Of a DNA stretch of 39,037 nucleotides, positions 1 to 38,987 are shown piece after piece (the stretch's first letter is position 1; each line of letters opens with the position of its first letter). The stretch is from UHGV virus genome UHGV-0175496. One strand, 5' to 3'. The position numbers and the translations under genes are program-made. Origin of the DNA: a virus. Below the pieces are notes generated by a model, which was given only the letters and a program-made list of their open reading frames with translations, made no database searches and was not told where the DNA came from.

Positions 1-53
1 TTATCAATTTGTTGCAACGAACAGGTCACTATCAGTCAAAATAAAATCATTAT
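1..53. other. Lambda-type attP P' arm fragment with three tandem Int arm-type binding sites (AGGTCACTAT, CAGTCAAAAT, AAATCATTAT); the core/overlap sequence is not inside the window
   Basis: Sequence TTATCAATTTGTTGCAACGAACAGGTCACTATCAGTCAAAATAAAATCATTATTTG matches the lambda P' arm as remembered; it abuts the 3' end of int. Confidence 0.7.
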
Positions 54-1120
54 TTGATTTCAATTTTGTCCCACTCCCTGCCTCTGTCATCACGATACTG
101 TGATGCCATGGTGTCCGACTTATGCCCGAGAAGATGTTGAGCAAACTTATCGCTTATCTGCTTCTCATAGAGTCTTGCAGACAAACTGCGCAACTCGTGA
201 AAGGTAGGCGGATCCCCTTCGAAGGAAAGACCTGATGCTTTTCGTGCGCGCATAAAATACCTTGATACTGTGCCGGATGAAAGCGGTTCACGACGAGTAG
301 ATGCAATTATGGTTTCTCCGCCAAGAATCTCTTTGCATTTATCAAGTGTTTCCTTCATTGATATCCCGAGAGCATCAACATGCAATGTTGTTGGGATGGC
401 AATTTTTACGCCTGTTTTGCTTTGCTCGACATAAAGATATCCATCTACGATATCAGACCACTTCATTTCGCATAAATCACCAACTCGCTGCCCGGTAACA
501 ACAGCCAGTTCCATTGCAAGTCTGAGCCAACATGGTGATGATTCTGCTGCTTGATAAATTTTCAGGTATTCGTCAGCCGTAAGTCTTGATCTCCTTACCT
601 CTGATTTTGCTGCGCGAGTGGCAGCGACAGGGTTTGTTGTTATATGGCCTTCAGCTATTGCCTCTCGGAATGCATCGCTCAGTGTTGATCTGATTAACTT
701 GGCTGACGCCGCCTTGCCCTCGTCTATGTATCCATTGAGCATTGCCGCAATTTCTTTTGTGGTGATGTCTTCAAGTGGAGCATCAGGCAGCCCCCTCCTT
801 ATTGCTTTAATTTTGCTCATGTAATTTATGAGTGTCTTCTGCTTGATTCCTCTGCTGGCCAGGATTTTTTCGTAGCGATCAAGCCATGAATGTAACGTAA
901 CGGAATTATCACTGTTGATTCTCGCTGTCAGAGGCTTGTGTTTGTGTCCTGAAAATAACTCAATGTTGGCCTGTATGGCTTCAGTGATTGCGATTCGCCT
1001 GTCTCTGCCTAATCCAAACTCTTTACCCGTCCTTGGGTCCCTGTAGCAGTAATATCCATTGTTTCTTATATAAAGGTTAGGGGGTAAATCCCGGCGCTCA
1101 TGACTTCGCCTTCTTCCCAT
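50..1120 (-). CDS. int: Lambda-type tyrosine integrase Int
   Basis: 356-aa ORF; translation matches lambda Int almost end to end (MGRRRSHERRDLPPNLYIRNNGYY ... HELRSLSARLYEKQ ... DDRGREWDKIEIK); ATG start and TAA stop checked in sequence. Confidence 0.95.
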   Translation of the reverse strand: MGRRRSHERRDLPPNLYIRNNGYYCYRDPRTGKEFGLGRDRRIAITEAIQANIELFSGHKHKPLTARINSDNSVTLHSWLDRYEKILASRGIKQKTLINYMSKIKAIRRGLPDAPLEDITTKEIAAMLNGYIDEGKAASAKLIRSTLSDAFREAIAEGHITTNPVAATRAAKSEVRRSRLTADEYLKIYQAAESSPCWLRLAMELAVVTGQRVGDLCEMKWSDIVDGYLYVEQSKTGVKIAIPTTLHVDALGISMKETLDKCKEILGGETIIASTRREPLSSGTVSRYFMRARKASGLSFEGDPPTFHELRSLSARLYEKQISDKFAQHLLGHKSDTMASQYRDDRGREWDKIEIK

Positions 1121-17006: not shown

Positions 17007-17330
17007 ATGAAGATGCCAGAAAAACATGACCTGTTAGCCGCCATTCTCGCGGCAAAGGAACAAGGCATCGGGGCAATCCTTGCGTTTGCAATGGCGTACC
17101 TTCGCGGCAGATATAATGGCGGTGCGTTTACAAAAACAGTAATCGACGCAACGATGTGCGCCATTATCGCCTGGTTCATTCGTGACCTTCTCGACTTCGC
17201 CGGACTAAGTAGCAATCTCGCTTATATAACGAGCGTGTTCATCGGCTACATCGGTACTGACTCGATTGGTTCGCTTATCAAACGCTTCGCTGCTAAAAAA
17301 GCCGGAGTAGAAGATGGTGGAAATCAATAA
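17007..17330 (+). CDS. S: Holin S (S107; S105 would start at the third codon)
   Basis: 107 aa [64 protein letters not shown]... matches lambda S; dual-start MKM motif. Confidence 0.95.
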
Positions 17331-17790
17331 TCAACGTAAGGCGTTCCTCGATATGCTGGCGTGGTCAGAGGGAACTGATAACGGACGACAGAAAACCAGA
17401 AATCATGGTTATGACGTCATTGTTGGCGGAGAGCTATTCACTGATTACTCAGATCACCCTCGCAAACTTGTCACGCTAAACCCAAAACTCAAATCAACAG
17501 CCGCCGGACGTTACCAGCTTCTTTCCCGTTGGTGGGATGCCTATCGTAAGCAGCTTGGCCTGAAAGACTTCTCTCCGAAAAGTCAGGACGCTGTGGCACT
17601 GCAACAGATTAAAGAGCGTGGCGCTTTACCGATGATTGATCGCGGTGATATTCGTCAGGCTATCGACCGTTGCAGCAATATCTGGGCTTCACTGCCGGGC
17701 GCTGGTTATGGTCAGTTCGAGCATAAGGCTGACAACCTGATTGCAAAATTCAAAGAAGCTGGCGGAACAGTCAGAGAGATTGAGGTATGA
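17314..17790 (+). CDS. R: Endolysin R (lytic transglycosylase)
   Basis: 158 aa [53 protein letters not shown]... matches lambda R. Confidence 0.95.
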
Positions 17791-30083: not shown

Positions 30084-30776
30084 ATGTTATATGCATTTAA
30101 GCTGGGCAGAAAACTGCGCGGCGAGGAACCTTATTGCCCTGAAAAAGGCGGGAAAGGTGGCAGCTCTGATAAAAGCGCAAAGTATGCAGCAGAAGCTCAG
30201 AAGTATGCCGCAGACCTGCAAAATCAGCAGTGGCAGACGATCATGAAAAACCTTGCTCCGTTCACGCCGCTTGCGGAGCAGTATGTTAACCAGCTTCAGA
30301 ATCTTTCCAGTTTAGAAGGTCAGGGGCAGGCACTTAATCAGTATTACAATTCTCAGCAGTATAAAGACCTTGCAGGTCAGGCTCGTTACCAGAGTCTTGC
30401 TGCTGCGGAGGCGACTGGCGGACTTGGTTCGACAGCCACAAGCAATCAACTGGCTACGATTGCTCCGACTCTCGGTCAGTCGTGGTTATCAAACCAGATG
30501 AGCAATTACAACAATCTGGCAAACGTTGGGCTTGGTGCGCTGCAAGGTCAGGCAAACGCTGGGCAGACATACGCCAACAACATGAGCAGCATTGCACAGC
30601 AAAGTGCAGCACTTGCCGCTGCTAATGCCAATAAACCATCAAGTCTTCAGACTGCAATTAGCGGTGGCACGTCTGGTGCGATTGCCGGTGCAGGTCTTGC
30701 CAGTCTTTTGGGAACATCAACGCCTTGGGGCGCTGGCATTGGTGCTGGTATCGGATTGCTTGGCTCGTTGTTTTAA
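30084..30776 (+). CDS. Ejection (internal virion) protein, P22 gp7-like
   Basis: 230 aa with a Gly/Ala-rich hydrophobic C-terminus (GAIAGAGLASLLGTSTPWGAGIGAGIGLLGSLF); size matches P22 gp7. Confidence 0.65.
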   Translation: MLYAFKLGRKLRGEEPYCPEKGGKGGSSDKSAKYAAEAQKYAADLQNQQWQTIMKNLAPFTPLAEQYVNQLQNLSSLEGQGQALNQYYNSQQYKDLAGQARYQSLAAAEATGGLGSTATSNQLATIAPTLGQSWLSNQMSNYNNLANVGLGALQGQANAGQTYANNMSSIAQQSAALAAANANKPSSLQTAISGGTSGAIAGAGLASLLGTSTPWGAGIGAGIGLLGSLF

Positions 30777-30785
30777 GGGGTAATC

Positions 30786-32117
30786 ATGGCTACTTGGCAA
30801 GGAACAAACGGCGGATTGTTGGCTGGTATCGGCGGCGTCAACTCAAACGCTCCGAGCGTAAATGACATCGGCAATACGCTTCAGCTTATCAGGCAGAACA
30901 ATGATATTGAGCGTTCAGGCGCTAACAATGTTGGGCTGACAGCTTTGCAAGGCCTTTCAGGTATTGCGGGGGTGTTTCAGCAGGAAAAGCAGGCTCAGCG
31001 GCAGAAAGAATTTCAGCAGGCGTACGCTAATGCTTATGCGTCTGGTGATCGCGGTGCTTTGCGTCAGTTGGCTACTCAATATCCAGACCAGATTGAATCC
31101 GTTCGTAAAGGCATGGGATTCATTGATGAAGAGCAGCGTAATTCTATCGGCACCTTAGCGGCTGGCGCACGCCTTGCATCATCGTCTCCAGAAGCAATGC
31201 AATCATGGCTGCAAAACAACGCCGGTGAGTTAGCTCGTGTTGGCGTTAATCCTCAGGATGTCGCTCAGATGTACCAACAGAACCCGCAGCAGTTCGGCGA
31301 ATTTGTCGATCACCTAGGGATGGCCAGCCTCGGCCCCGAAAAATACTTTGACCTTCAGGATAAAATGCAGGGTCGTCAGGTGACCATGCGCGGTCAGGAT
31401 CTGGATTCGCAAACCGCCGCTCGGAATCAGGCAATCACAATGCGCGGACAAGATATCCAGGCGAATTTAGGTCAGCAGCGCATTAATCTGGACGCAGAAA
31501 CAAACCGCATTAACAACGAAAATAAGCGCCTTGACCGGATGCTATCAGCAGAAGCTAACGACCTGAAGCGACAGGAAATACAGAGCCGCATAGCAGCCAA
31601 CAACCAGAAGTTGCAGCAGAAGCAGCAAGAGCTAAATGATGGCTACAAAGACGGCATCAACACCCTCACAACCAGCATGTTCACTCTGAACGATATCGTT
31701 AGTTCTCCTTCACTTAAGAGCATTACAGGCTTACGTGGGGTAATCCCCAACGTTCCAGGCTCACAGGCTGCCGACACTCAGGCACGACTTGATACCTTTA
31801 AATCCCAAGCATACCTGACAGCGGTTCAGGCCATGCGAGGCATGGGTGCACTTTCTGATGCCGAGGGCAAAAAGCTCGACCAGGCTGTTGGTTCTCTGCA
31901 AAACTCGCAGAGCGAGGAGTCCTTTCGTCGCAACGCTGGCGTCATCCTGAACACGCTCAACCAGAAGCGTAATGAGGCGGTTGGTAAGTACGTTCAGCAA
32001 AACGGTATCAAGCGAGTGGAAGCGCCTCAGGCTTCTATAGATTACCTGAAGCAGCACCCCGAGCTGTCAATCGACTTCATTAATCGCTACGGATATCTTC
32101 CATCTTTGGGGCAGTAA
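30786..32117 (+). CDS. Ejection protein, P22 gp20-like
   Basis: 443 aa, Q/N-rich and coiled-coil-rich; second ejection gene by synteny. Confidence 0.6.
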   Translation: MATWQGTNGGLLAGIGGVNSNAPSVNDIGNTLQLIRQNNDIERSGANNVGLTALQGLSGIAGVFQQEKQAQRQKEFQQAYANAYASGDRGALRQLATQYPDQIESVRKGMGFIDEEQRNSIGTLAAGARLASSSPEAMQSWLQNNAGELARVGVNPQDVAQMYQQNPQQFGEFVDHLGMASLGPEKYFDLQDKMQGRQVTMRGQDLDSQTAARNQAITMRGQDIQANLGQQRINLDAETNRINNENKRLDRMLSAEANDLKRQEIQSRIAANNQKLQQKQQELNDGYKDGINTLTTSMFTLNDIVSSPSLKSITGLRGVIPNVPGSQAADTQARLDTFKSQAYLTAVQAMRGMGALSDAEGKKLDQAVGSLQNSQSEESFRRNAGVILNTLNQKRNEAVGKYVQQNGIKRVEAPQASIDYLKQHPELSIDFINRYGYLPSLGQ

Positions 32118-34511
32118 ATGGCTAATTACCGTGATTTGTTAGAGCAGGCTGGCGCACGTTACGGTGTGCCAGAAGGGTTGATGACTGCACTGGGTGCCAA
32201 GGAGTCTTCTTACAACCCTGCCGCAGTAAGCTCCGCCGGGGCTGTAGGATTGACTCAGGTCATGCCTGGGACATGGCGTGATATGGGTTATACCGATGAG
32301 CAAATGCAAAACCCCGAATATCAGGCTGACGCTGGCGCGCGCTATCTGGCAAAGATGTACCAGCAGTTTGGTAACTGGCGTGACGCTCTTCAGGCTTATC
32401 ACGACGGTCCCGGCAACGTTATGAAGGCAAAGCGTGGTGAATATACGCCAGGACCTGAAGGCCGCGGTTACGTTGATGATCGCTTTGCTCAATGGGCGGG
32501 TGACCCGGTGACAGACTCAACAGTCGAACAGCGCGCCACCTCTGCAAAGGTACATCCTCAGCAAGACCCTAACAACCCGTTTGCACAACTGGAAGTACAG
32601 TCATCCGAACAAGTATCGGCATCAGGTGTGCAGTCAGACCCAAATAATCCATTTGCTCAGATTGAGCAGCAGGCAGCCAGTCAGCAGCCACCTCAACCCG
32701 TAAGTTCCGTCGCACCGAAACCTGTTCAGCAGCAAGGCGGAATAATGTCTGACCTTGGTAATGGACTTGCTGAAACCGGGCGCGGCTTACTACAGGCAGG
32801 AATCAACGTAGCGAACATACCTGCTGAACTCACTGATGCTGTAACAAGCGCGGCGGCTTGGGCTGGCGGTAAACTCGGCATTGGCGATGGTACATATCAA
32901 CCAGCGCCACGAGTAACAACGCAGGGATTAGAGCAGGACTTTGGCCTTCAGCAAGGCGCGCTGACTCCACAAACTACAGAGGGCAGGGTATTTGCTGAGG
33001 CATTGCCTTACCTCACTCCTGCTGGCATTGAGAGAGCGGCAACACAGGCACCAACACTTGCTGGTCGAATTGCTCAGGGGGCAACTCGCCTTCTAGCAGA
33101 AAACGCAGTCGGATCACTTGCTGCAAATAGTGCGAAAGATGATGCGGAAGCACTCGCCACCGATTTAGGCGTTGGTGTACTTGCTGGCGGTGCTATTAAC
33201 GCTGCCGGACGTGGATTAGGTGCTGCTTATCGTGGCGTTAGTGGTGCTATCGCGCCAGAAGCACAGCAGGCTATCAGATTTGCAGAGCGTGAAGGCGTTC
33301 CTCTGCACACCACAGACCTGTTACAACCCACTTCCCGCGTCGGAAAAATGGCGCAGACTACAGCAGAAAATATCCCTCTGGCTGGCACAAGCGGAATGAG
33401 AGCAACGCAACAGGAAGCGAGAAGCCAGTTGGTGCAGAGATTTGCTGATAAATTCGGTGAGTATGATCCAGCTGTTGTTATTGACAGCCTTAAAGCGAAA
33501 ACATCAGGAATTCGTCGTGCTGCAGGGAACCGTCTTGAGCAGGTTCAGAATGCTATGGCTGGAGTAAACATTCAGCCTGCGCGAGCAATTCAGCAGATTG
33601 ATACAGAAATATCTAACCTGCAGAAGCTTGGTAAGGTTGCTGATAACGAGACAATTTCAAAACTTCAGTCATATCGTGATGAGCTTGTTCGCAATGCTGG
33701 CCCTGATGGCCCGGTAAATCTGGATTTGAAGCAATTAAGCGACCTGCGCAGCCAGTTCAGAATGGACGTGAAGGGTGAGCGACCAGTGTTACCAAACCGT
33801 TCCGATGCTGCCATTCAGCGCGTTTACAAGGCAATGACTGACGATATCAATGGTGCCATTGGTCAGAATCTTGGCAACGATACTCTCCGTAAATATCAGC
33901 AGGCCAATGCCGTCTACGCTGACGAAGCGGCGAAACTAAAGAATACCAGGCTGAAGAATGTTCTCATGAAAGGCGACCTGACGCCGGAAGTTGTCAACAA
34001 CATGCTATTCAGCAAGAACAAATCGGAAATTAAGACGCTGTATAACTCAGTTGGTCGTGTTGGCAGGGCGCAAATGCGCAATGGCATCATTGGAAAGGCG
34101 ATGGAGAAATCTGGCGGATCCCCTGACCAGTTCCTTCGGCAGCTTAACATCCTGCAAAACCAGACTGGCATCACATTTAAGGGGCAGGACGCTGCTTATC
34201 TGAAAGGATTAAAAAACTATCTGCAATCCACGCAGCAGGCTGCAAAAGCGGCAGTAACAACACCCACAGGGCAGCAAACCATCCCGTTCATTATCGGATA
34301 TGGGACGGCAATGAACCCGGCGACAACTGGCGCAGCAGTAAGCTACGGCCTTCTTGCTCGCGCCTATGAGAGTAAGCCATTCAGAGATGCAATGCTACGA
34401 ATGGCAAACACACCACGCGGATCAACAGCGTTTGAGAAAGCCATGCAGCAGGCACAAAAGGCAATTAACGCTATGACGCAGGGGGCTAAGTCTGATGCAT
34501 TGTCAGAATAG
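32118..34511 (+). CDS. Ejection protein (gp16 position) with an N-terminal soluble lytic transglycosylase domain
   Basis: 797 aa; N-terminus carries the SLT family signature GAKESSYNPAAVSSAGAVGLTQVMPGTWRDMGY...QAYHDGPGNV. Confidence 0.7.
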   Translation: MANYRDLLEQAGARYGVPEGLMTALGAKESSYNPAAVSSAGAVGLTQVMPGTWRDMGYTDEQMQNPEYQADAGARYLAKMYQQFGNWRDALQAYHDGPGNVMKAKRGEYTPGPEGRGYVDDRFAQWAGDPVTDSTVEQRATSAKVHPQQDPNNPFAQLEVQSSEQVSASGVQSDPNNPFAQIEQQAASQQPPQPVSSVAPKPVQQQGGIMSDLGNGLAETGRGLLQAGINVANIPAELTDAVTSAAAWAGGKLGIGDGTYQPAPRVTTQGLEQDFGLQQGALTPQTTEGRVFAEALPYLTPAGIERAATQAPTLAGRIAQGATRLLAENAVGSLAANSAKDDAEALATDLGVGVLAGGAINAAGRGLGAAYRGVSGAIAPEAQQAIRFAEREGVPLHTTDLLQPTSRVGKMAQTTAENIPLAGTSGMRATQQEARSQLVQRFADKFGEYDPAVVIDSLKAKTSGIRRAAGNRLEQVQNAMAGVNIQPARAIQQIDTEISNLQKLGKVADNETISKLQSYRDELVRNAGPDGPVNLDLKQLSDLRSQFRMDVKGERPVLPNRSDAAIQRVYKAMTDDINGAIGQNLGNDTLRKYQQANAVYADEAAKLKNTRLKNVLMKGDLTPEVVNNMLFSKNKSEIKTLYNSVGRVGRAQMRNGIIGKAMEKSGGSPDQFLRQLNILQNQTGITFKGQDAAYLKGLKNYLQSTQQAAKAAVTTPTGQQTIPFIIGYGTAMNPATTGAAVSYGLLARAYESKPFRDAMLRMANTPRGSTAFEKAMQQAQKAINAMTQGAKSDALSE

Positions 34512-34601: not shown

Positions 34602-35087
34602 TTATCTGATGTTACTGCTACTGTTGCATGTGACTGTATTTCCAAACCCTGAATTGCAGTTTGTGTAAGTGTCAACTCGTGTTGGATAGGGTTGAGTTAT
34701 AACAGGCTGTCTCGCTTTTTGCTCGATCGCTTGCATTGTGTTTACAGCCTGATAATTCAATAAAGCCTGCTGGAATGCTTGGCTTTGTGCTATTTGTTGG
34801 GTTTGTTCTTGGCTTTGTAATTGAACATAAAGATTCTGAAGCTCAAGTCTTGCCTGTGCGTCACTTATTTTACCTTCATCAACACCTTGCCCGAGCATCT
34901 TTGCAGCAAGGACATACAGCTTAGGTGTTGGTGCAGACGCCATGCGTGAGTCGTTCTTTACACTGGCATCAAGGCAATTAGCCATATCGCTAAGCTTTTG
35001 ATAGCGTTGTTCGCAACTTGCTTGATAGTCACTTACTTTTGCGCATCCAACCAGCAGAAGAGGGATAATTAACAGTGATTTTTTCAT
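34602..35087 (-). CDS. Lipoprotein of unknown function in the immI-equivalent region (candidate exclusion or conversion factor)
   Basis: 161 aa from ATG 35085-35087 (AGGAG upstream); MKKSLLIIPLLLVGC lipobox signal peptide; Q-rich helical middle; Cys-rich C-terminus. Opposite strand to the structural genes. Confidence 0.65.
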   Translation of the reverse strand: MKKSLLIIPLLLVGCAKVSDYQASCEQRYQKLSDMANCLDASVKNDSRMASAPTPKLYVLAAKMLGQGVDEGKISDAQARLELQNLYVQLQSQEQTQQIAQSQAFQQALLNYQAVNTMQAIEQKARQPVITQPYPTRVDTYTNCNSGFGNTVTCNSSSNIR

Positions 35088-35157
35088 ATGGTTAACTCTC
35101 CTTAGTTTTTCACCGGATATCATGAAGGCAATGCCATTTTAGCCGGAAACTAGATTT

Positions 35158-35424
35158 CTATGTTTCCTTTTTATTATTGCTATACATGGTCTTAAGCGTT
35201 TCAAAAACCATTCTCTTAACCATATCAGATTGTTGTTCTGCCATACGCTCTGCATCGTCAATGTAAACGGATGCAGAGCTTTGTTTAGCCAATGATTCTT
35301 CAATCGCTGCAATTATCTCTGAGTTCAGCGATCTGTTATTCATCTTCGCACGCTGTTTAATTTTCGCGTGGAGTTCATGCGGAAGTCTCAAGTGAAACTG
35401 CGCCTCGTCGTATTTGCTGTACAT
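35158..35424 (-). CDS. mnt: Mnt-like ribbon-helix-helix repressor
   Basis: About 88 aa; FHLRLPHELHAKIKQRAKMNNRSLNSEIIAAIEESL and C-terminal DDAERMAEQQSDMVKRMVFETLKTMY parallel P22 Mnt. Confidence 0.75.
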   Translation of the reverse strand: MYSKYDEAQFHLRLPHELHAKIKQRAKMNNRSLNSEIIAAIEESLAKQSSASVYIDDAERMAEQQSDMVKRMVFETLKTMYSNNKKET

Positions 35425-35545
35425 CCTTGATGCCTCACCAGTTGGGTGGAATGGCATCGTAACCTACTGGATAAATACTCAATAGTACCATTTCGGTATG
35501 CAATCACATCATGGTTGCATCATATCATTCGTCTGGAGCAATGAA

Positions 35546-37793: not shown

Positions 37794-38987
37794 TCACTCC
37801 ACCTTCCCATCAAGCCAGTCCGCCCACCATTGCATCATTTCTCTGCGCTTATCGAGATACTGAGCATGGTTGTAAATCCCGCGCACAGATCCGCCATTGG
37901 CATGTGCCAGTTGCACTTCAATAGCATCAGCGGGCCATTCGTGCTCGTTCATAATCGTGCTGAATTCATGCCTGAATCCGTGACCGCTTTCCAGACCCTC
38001 ATAGCCGATTTGTTTGATCACAAGTAGCACCGCGTTCTCGCAGATTGGCTTCTTCTTATCGTTGCGCCCGGAAAAAACAAACTCTGATACTGGTTTAGTG
38101 ATTGAGCTTAGTGTAGTGAGAAGTTCAACCACCTGGTCTGACATCGGGACAACATGAATTTTGCGTCCCTTCATCACACTGGCGTCGATGGTGATAATCC
38201 TGTTTTCAAAATCGACGTTCTTCCATAGCATGGAACGAAGCTCTTTTGTTCTTAGGGCTGTGTAGCGTAAAACTTTGGTCGCAATGAGCGATACGATACT
38301 TCCTGAAAATGTTGCAAGTGCTTTGTTGAATGCCGAGATCTGGTCGGCAGGTAAAAACGGGAAGTTCTTCTTGCGGTATCCCTTCATGGCGTCAGCAAGG
38401 TCAGGTGCCGGGTTATATTTAGCCCTACCAGTGACAATAGCGTAACGGAAAACCTCGCCGCATCTTCTGCGTGCTTTGTTGGCTCGCTCCATTGCACCGC
38501 GATCTTCAAATCTGCGGATTACTTCCAGCAGTTGCATCGGCTCAATATCCTGAATTTCAAGGCCGCCGATGATGGGTAAAATGTCGTCATCAAACATTTT
38601 TGCAAGTTCATTTGCATAGCCTACTGACCAGACTTGCTTCTTGTGCTCGTACCATTCCTTGTAAATCGCACTAAAGGAATTGTTGTTAGACGAAGCCTTT
38701 TTCGCTTTTACCGGATCGATGCCAACCGAGATGTCTTTCCTCGCGGTCCATGCTTTATCCCTTGCCTCTTGCAAAGTCATAAGCGGATATTTTCCGACGG
38801 TCAGGATTTTCTCCTTACCGTCAATCTTGTAGCGAAGCTGCCATACCTTTTTCCCTGATACAGGGACATAAAGGTACAGGCCATTACCATCGAGTAGGCG
38901 GTATGGTTTTTCTTTCGGCTTTGCTGCTTCAATCTGCTTAACGGTGAGCATGGGTAAAAATCCGGTGGGTAAAATTATTTTATCCAC
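37794..38987 (-). CDS. Tyrosine integrase of the P4/DUF4102 family
   Basis: Probable true start is the ATG at 38949-38951 (MLTVKQIEAAKPKEKPYRLLDGNGLYLYV); the track's start codon is GTG. Catalytic HGFRHE and a C-terminal Tyr; 3' end faces the tailspike. Confidence 0.85.
   Translation of the reverse strand: MDKIILPTGFLPMLTVKQIEAAKPKEKPYRLLDGNGLYLYVPVSGKKVWQLRYKIDGKEKILTVGKYPLMTLQEARDKAWTARKDISVGIDPVKAKKASSNNNSFSAIYKEWYEHKKQVWSVGYANELAKMFDDDILPIIGGLEIQDIEPMQLLEVIRRFEDRGAMERANKARRRCGEVFRYAIVTGRAKYNPAPDLADAMKGYRKKNFPFLPADQISAFNKALATFSGSIVSLIATKVLRYTALRTKELRSMLWKNVDFENRIITIDASVMKGRKIHVVPMSDQVVELLTTLSSITKPVSEFVFSGRNDKKKPICENAVLLVIKQIGYEGLESGHGFRHEFSTIMNEHEWPADAIEVQLAHANGGSVRGIYNHAQYLDKRREMMQWWADWLDGKVE

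Follow-up and report, generated by a model that had tools for sequence, protein, structure and literature searches.

An N-terminal lytic transglycosylase domain on the gp16-position ejection protein of a P22-like phage genome

An SLT domain at the N-terminus of the gp16-position protein

The virus genome UHGV-0175496, analysed here over its full length of 39,037 nucleotides (hereafter the window), is a P22-like (Lederbergvirus-type) temperate phage genome, built as a mosaic of Sf6-, HK620- and IME10-like segments with 95-98% nucleotide identity. An open reading frame (ORF) on its plus strand, at 32118..34511, starts with ATG and encodes a 797 amino acid (aa) ejection (DNA transfer) protein assigned to PHROG 770, in which a lytic transglycosylase (SLT) domain is followed by a linker and by a body of the Sf6 gp13 type. 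The ORF lies after the gp20 homologue, at the position expected of gene 16, where the initial annotation of this DNA had placed it. The length quoted there for P22 gp16, about 609 aa, likewise agrees with the 1,830 nt P22 gene 16 coding sequence, which yields a product of 609 aa.

The SLT domain (aa 1-126; 32118..32495, +) had been read from a sequence signature, and domain searches support it strongly, whether by Pfam, PHROG, NCBIfam, the Slt70 sequence or Foldseek. The Pfam SLT model PF01464 matches aa 7-110 (E=2.9e-25; 88.6 bits against a cut-off of 21.3) over profile positions 2-110 of 117, NCBIfam lytic transglycosylase models cover the same stretch, and the PHROG families matching this region are lytic tail protein families and an "internal virion protein with endolysin domain". 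Among the structures in the PDB, the best sequence match is Escherichia coli Slt70 (1qsa; E=4.6e-10), with E29 of the window protein opposite the catalytic E478 in an ungapped part of the alignment. The signature itself occupies aa 29-48 (ESSYNPAAVSSAGAVGLTQV); the pattern first given had one gap too short by a residue, the correct form being ES..N....S..GA.GLTQV. The family-1 motifs of the window protein are E29-S30, G44-L45-T46-Q47 and A93-Y94-H95-D96-G97, the third of which reads AYHDGPG over aa 93-99. A protein database search with the 210-aa N-terminus, which returned mainly short fragments and generic bacterial SLT proteins, was used for alignment building; in the SLT alignment of 60 sequences (the window protein and 59 homologues), E29, S30, G44, Q47, Y94 and G97 are invariant. 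The predicted catalytic glutamate of the ES motif, E29, is encoded at 32202..32204 (+; codon checked) and aligns with both Slt70 E478 and T7 gp16 E37.

An AlphaFold2 (AF2) model of aa 1-210 has a predicted local distance difference test score (pLDDT) above 90 for aa 1-110, of 82-92 to approximately aa 126, and of 47-73 beyond. When this model was compared with the PDB by Foldseek, the top 50 matches were all lytic transglycosylases, among them Slt70, Pseudomonas Slt, MltC, MltF, MltE and MltD, with a probability of 1.00 for Slt70, Slt, MltC, MltE and MltF, and the fold is of the goose-lysozyme-like, all-alpha type. The Slt70 match (E=8e-6) has a template modelling (TM) score of 0.52, normalised to the 210-aa query, and 33% identity in the structural alignment. 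The N-terminal domain is a family 1 lytic transglycosylase with an SLT fold and its catalytic residues in place.

The domain is followed by a Q/P/S-rich, probably disordered linker (aa 127-206; 32496..32735, +; pLDDT 47-73), with 16 Gln, 11 Pro and 10 Ser among 83 residues, and at its 3' end lies the point of recombination with the body. The all-alpha body (aa 207-797; 32736..34511, +) is 97% identical to Sf6 gp13 aa 76-665; by blastp, aa 208-797 share 97% identity with Sf6 gp13 over 590 aa and 33% with P22 gp16 over 584 aa. The PHROG 770 profile, 'DNA transfer protein', spans aa 108-797 (E=4e-239), and homologues of the body carry precomputed Pfam PF26808 assignments. A PDB sequence search with the whole protein gave matches for the SLT domain only and none for the body, and a full-length AF2 model, built on a 30-sequence alignment with 72-99% identity, was unusable (mean pLDDT 41). 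No classical transmembrane helix was found in the body, the highest 19-residue hydrophobic window reaching 1.36 on the Kyte-Doolittle scale.

Chimeric origin of the protein

Direct scans of P22 gp16 (609 aa), Sf6 gp13 (665 aa) and HK620 gp16 (722 aa) gave no Pfam or NCBIfam match and no SLT domain. These proteins share with the window protein a homologous body and a gene located 3' of gp7 and gp20 and ahead of the tailspike region, but begin with short (61-74 aa), non-enzymatic N-termini that have no Pfam match. Alignment and blastp show that aa 1-206 of the window protein, comprising the SLT domain and the linker, stand in for the unrelated 74-aa N-terminus of Sf6 (MAKAWKDV...). The module gain relative to P22 put forward in the initial annotation thus stands insofar as P22 gp16 has no SLT domain, but the change is a replacement rather than a simple addition, and the exchanged block includes the C-terminal part of gp20. 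The gp16 protein is a chimera produced by module exchange.

Comparison of the window with Sf6 and Sf101 by blastn delimits a single 1.4 kb mosaic block relative to Sf6 (31325..32729, +), which begins at approximately codon 180 of gene 20, stops at gp16 codon 204, and encodes gp20 aa 180-443 together with gp16 aa 1-204. The first 179 residues of gp20 are 94% identical to Sf6, whereas over the C-terminal 60% (aa 180-443) the identity is 36% with Sf6 and 97% with Sf101, a boundary that agrees with the Sf6/Sf101 gp12 mosaic reported previously (PMC4755594). At the other end of the block, Sf6-type identity begins at 32730 and Sf101-type identity stops at 32735. Sf101, Huey, Dewey and APC_JM3.2 have the same 618-nt SLT module, at least 99% identical, fused in frame with another body. 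In these phages, including Sf101 with its 911-aa gp13, the first 206 residues are at least 99% identical to those of the window protein and the upstream gp20 is the same, but the body starts in the manner of P22 and HK620 (SLMQQAGDWLTGG...) and is 18-26% identical to that of the window. The occurrence of one module on different bodies, with a sharp junction in the Gln-rich linker (32730-32735), argues that the module is an exchangeable cassette.

Of 71 E. coli genomes, 66 have the gp20 C-terminal domain and the SLT module as one contiguous stretch, as do all nine phage records, and the unlinked E. coli exceptions that were looked at are degraded prophages. Obligatory co-adaptation of the gp20 C-terminus and the gp16 N-terminus was considered and rejected as a firm conclusion: Sf6 and HK620 have a common gp16 N-module (61% identity) with unrelated gp20 C-terminal domains (29%), and the single E. 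coli case of apparent unlinking proved to be a degraded prophage. The linkage may reflect just the recent spread of a block that is 97-99% identical wherever it is found. The gp20-gp16 region as a whole reassorts in at least five independent segments among the window, Sf101, Sf6, HK620 and P22, namely the gp20 N-terminal and C-terminal parts, the gp16 N-terminal part, the first approximately 90 aa of the gp16 body, and the remaining body.

Distribution and annotation of SLT-bearing gp16 proteins

A 797-aa protein identical (100%) to that of the window (label P0121) is present in NCBI under the name "lytic transglycosylase domain-containing protein", a name also borne by dozens of variants that are 97-99% identical to it. 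Among 5,426 complete E. coli genomes, the SLT module was found in 70, always chromosomal and always in single copy; a gp7 probe matches 839 complete E. coli genomes, such that the module accompanies approximately 8% of them. In 53 complete E. coli genomes, the exact junction between the SLT module and the Sf6-type body is found with an intact ORF; the plaque-forming phages IME10 and phiKp_30 likewise have this 797-aa ORF without interruption. A Cronobacter prophage has the same SLT module, and the Sf101 version is named "transglycosylase" in its GenBank record. For IME10, the orthologous 2.4-kb ORF (NC_019501 31064-33457; 97.7% identical) carries no annotation at all in either RefSeq or GenBank.

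Related proteins extend beyond these phages. In each representative examined of Murrayvirus (IME_EC2, Lumpael), Skarprettervirus, Sortsnevirus and Hungariovirus, and in the Kosakonia phages, gp16 is approximately 1000 aa long with an N-terminal SLT domain, and the gene order (gp10-gp26-gp14-gp7-gp20-gp16-tailspike) is that of the window. Their SLT domains are 50-63% identical to that of the window over the module and 38-55% over longer alignments, and share the conserved motifs AYHDGPGN and TPGPEG..YVD.RF. They differ from the window protein in a 30-aa leader with the motif MANxFDQF ahead of the SLT domain, whereas the window protein starts directly at the domain. The gp20 C-terminal domain was also considered as an acquisition from these lytic, always SLT-bearing genera, and this was rejected, as it is no closer to them (25-31% identity). 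The Kosakonia phage Kc166B has the SLT module in an ORF of its own (310 aa), ahead of a body ORF of 734 aa, and the Sortsne annotation splits a region that can be read as a single 1026-codon frame; these splits are either natural or sequencing or annotation errors.

Hundreds of gp16/Sf6 gp13-type proteins of 614-669 aa from E. coli, Salmonella and Citrobacter, which are devoid of an SLT domain, also bear the NCBI name 'lytic transglycosylase domain-containing protein'. Four such examples (labels P0161, P0163, P0166 and P0170) have no SLT match and carry Pfam PF26808 only. The misnaming appears to have spread from the 797-aa chimera via the common body; the locus thus exposes a propagated misannotation, and the name is untrustworthy on these homologues unless the domain content is checked. 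In some prophages, the N-terminus of the gp26 needle, gp7 or gp20 is fused to the gp16 body by in-frame deletion, and these forms are presumably defective.

The SLT-bearing gp16 is already known, well populated and annotated, and the window protein is an ordinary example of a transglycosylase-carrying ejection protein. Such types were reportedly, and only possibly, described by Casjens and Thuman-Commike in 2011 (Virology 411:393).

Proposed role in genome delivery

The closest functional parallel is T7 gp16. Both proteins are the products of the largest of three consecutive ejection protein genes, and both have an SLT domain at the extreme N-terminus that is followed by an extended linker. 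The T7 gp16 N-terminus shares 28% identity with the window protein (E=1e-10), with E29 opposite the catalytic E37, and the expected role, peptidoglycan cutting while a DNA conduit forms, would be the same. T7 gp16 is, however, 1318 aa long as against 797 aa, the remaining approximately 590 residues of the window protein have no detectable sequence similarity to it (no BLASTP alignment of the body with T7 gp16 better than E=2), and the P22-like ejection proteins, unlike those of T7, form no visible core stack (PMC8954989). The window SLT domain is nearer to that of Slt70 (33% identity in the structural alignment) than to that of T7. With the C-terminal domain of Slt70 (family 1A) it shares the fold and the ES, GLxQ and AYNxGxG motifs, the last as AYHDGPG, but the window protein has neither the superhelical U and L domains nor a signal peptide, and would be delivered by a virion instead of Sec. 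The reading with most support has the window protein working in the manner of the T7 gp16 N-terminal domain; it is not classed with the T7 gp16 family because its body has no sequence similarity to T7 gp16.

We consider it likely that the protein is packaged in the virion as an ejection protein, with an active family-1 lytic transglycosylase at aa 1-126, a flexible 80-residue linker and an Sf6 gp13-type body. Homology to the P22 ejection proteins and to T7 gp16 is what would place it in the virion and points to muralytic activity. One account of P22 (PMC8402733) gives approximately 12 gp16 molecules per virion, which are ejected and form a trans-periplasmic conduit with gp7 and gp20. In the sequence of events proposed for the window phage, once the virion has adsorbed and its tail needle has been released, the portal and tail channel would serve gp7, gp20 and gp16 as the exit from the capsid. 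On reaching the periplasm, the SLT domain would cut the bonds between N-acetylmuramic acid (MurNAc) and N-acetylglucosamine (GlcNAc), with E29 as the acid/base and 1,6-anhydro-MurNAc as the product. The local widening of the peptidoglycan mesh would allow a trans-envelope DNA conduit to assemble, and the body would then engage the inner membrane. The retention of all the catalytic motifs in relatives that are 38-63% identical argues that catalysis is under selection, and the persistence of these residues in gp16 of four genera and the Kosakonia phages points to long-term constraint.

Several points weigh against this proposal. The literature searched gave no functional study of an SLT-bearing gp16 in a P22-like phage, whether by activity assay, by virion proteomics or with mutants. 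Infection by most P22-like phages, among them P22, Sf6 and HK620, proceeds with no SLT domain, so the mechanism cannot depend on one. The P22 virion has already been assigned a muralytic protein, gp4, the single protein listed for P22 in a review of virion-associated lysins, its activity being weakly characterised (PMC5380687); the SLT domain may be redundant with gp4, as the window phage has a gp4 homologue. Finally, it has to be assumed, on the model of T7, that a folded domain crosses the tail channel unfolded and then refolds.

A conditional benefit is expected, because Sf6, HK620 and P22 manage without the domain, a gp4 homologue is present, and lysis is served by a separate holin-endolysin-spanin cassette. 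The T7 gp16 transglycosylase is required for genome internalisation only when the peptidoglycan is highly cross-linked (PMC8954989); by analogy, fast-growing cells can probably be infected without the SLT activity of the window protein, which would be of use mainly where the wall is highly cross-linked, as in the cold or in stationary phase.

The locus bears on how DNA crosses the peptidoglycan in the short-tailed P22-like phages, which a 2022 review presents as being without a gp16 transglycosylase. The SLT-bearing gp16 is a counterexample, and the published generalisation for P22-like phages is too broad. Furthermore, the 797-aa and 665-aa proteins, the bodies of which are 97% identical, constitute a natural SLT-plus/SLT-minus pair that permits a clean genetic test of a virion-borne transglycosylase.

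A paired peptide motif and alternative interpretations

The linker contains two copies of a peptide motif, DPNNPFAQLE at aa 150-159 (32565..32594, +) and DPNNPFAQIE at aa 174-183 (32637..32666, +), located 24 residues apart. The copies agree in nine of ten residues, yet nine of the 30 nucleotides differ, seven of these synonymously, which suggests that the peptide is under selection and that the copies do not stem from a recent duplication. The gp16 proteins of the other genera also contain two motifs of the form N-x-F-[AD]-Q-[FLIY], one at the extreme N-terminus (MANxFDQF) and one after the SLT domain (GNxFDQF), whereas in the window protein both copies follow the domain. Copies within one protein are more alike than copies compared across phages (means of 5.0 and 3.3 of six positions; permutation p=0.0004 over seven lineages, with a statistic that ignores phylogeny). 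In T7 gp16, residues 157-228, which follow the SLT domain, act as a 'molecular tape' on gp15 (PMC8954989), and the paired motif may, speculatively, be comparable to it. That the motif beside the SLT domain is a previously undescribed docking signal, which binds gp20 or the portal, tethers gp16 in the virion or 'tapes' a periplasmic tube, is a tentative idea that we regard as doubtful. Were it true, the SLT-plus and SLT-minus gp16 proteins would provide a ready system for the study of cell wall crossing in P22-like phages.

The same motif bears on an alternative in which catalysis contributes little and the SLT domain serves chiefly in structure or assembly; it could then act as a 'wing' or docking module by which the gp20 tube is organised, with binding left to the linker motifs. 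This would be in keeping with the decoration of the gp15 tunnel by the T7 gp16 N-terminal domain and with the T7 tape, with the inheritance of the SLT module and the gp20 C-terminal domain as one block, and with the conservation of the motif peptide, but not its nucleotides, and the co-variation of its copies within proteins across genera. A purely structural role would, however, need no retention of the catalytic and substrate-groove motif residues, all of which are kept in the 38-63% identical relatives. The pairing of the gp20 C-terminus with the gp16 N-terminus is, moreover, not obligatory, as the Sf6 and HK620 comparison indicates, and the near-identity of the block everywhere means that the linkage may be mere recent spread. 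We regard this alternative as improbable, and a catalytic role during entry is preferred.

It is highly improbable that the long ORF results from faulty annotation or assembly, or from gene fusion as a prophage decays, and stands for two separate products, or that an internal start at M210 yields a functional SLT-less body. The separate SLT and body ORFs of Kc166B would fit such a reading, as would the prophages in which deletions fuse other genes to the gp16 body (labels P0144, P0165, P0157, P0159, P0164 and P0198). A weak Shine-Dalgarno-like sequence, AAGGCGGA, also lies a few bases 5' of the M210 ATG at the start of the body (window 32721-32747), such that internal initiation giving an SLT-less product is conceivable from the sequence. 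Against this, the same unbroken 797-aa ORF recurs in IME10, phiKp_30 and the 53 complete E. coli genomes, Sf101, Huey and Dewey have the module in frame with another body, and fused forms of approximately 1000 aa are the rule in the four other genera. The gp20 stop codon (TAA) immediately adjoins the gp16 ATG in the junction sequence, as translational coupling would predict.

A role for the domain late in infection instead of at entry, for instance as an accessory lysin or in lysis from without, is scarcely credible: although the domain cleaves peptidoglycan by type and PHROG families labelled 'endolysin' match it, the protein has no signal peptide and no holin-linked context, its gene lies in the ejection protein operon with a complete holin-endolysin-spanin cassette 15 kb upstream, and the SLT domain is covalently joined to a protein with homologues that travel in the virion and are ejected. 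The endolysin of that cassette (17314..17790, +; phrog_90, E=2e-63) is flanked by a holin (phrog_126) and Rz (phrog_13), and the gp16 SLT domain is not required by the phage for lysis.

Neighbouring genes and other features of the window

The genes 5' of the gp16 ORF encode gp4 (PF11650), gp10, the gp26 needle (PF16532), gp14 (DUF2824), gp7 and gp20. The gp7 homologue (230 aa; 30084..30776, +) matches PF25688 (P22_gp7; E=1.8e-134), and the gp20 homologue (443 aa; 30786..32117, +) matches PF16928 (Inj_translocase; E=2.7e-68). On the 3' side, two small minus-strand ORFs precede the tailspike gene.

At the position occupied by sieA in P22, an ORF at 34602-35123 (-) encodes a 172-aa protein of phrog_6067 (unknown function) with no Pfam match, and adjoins a Mnt/Arc-like repressor gene (window 35158-35457, -). 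The ORF product was considered as a SieA homologue and rejected, because it does not resemble P22 SieA; the ORF may be another superinfection exclusion gene or a moron gene. Two full-length tyrosine integrases are encoded at opposite ends of the window, at 50-1120 (-) and 37794-38987 (-), one of the lambda type (Arm-DNA-bind_1) and the other of the P4/CPS-53 type (Arm-DNA-bind_3), and the two would adjoin each other if the window represents a circularly permuted phage genome.

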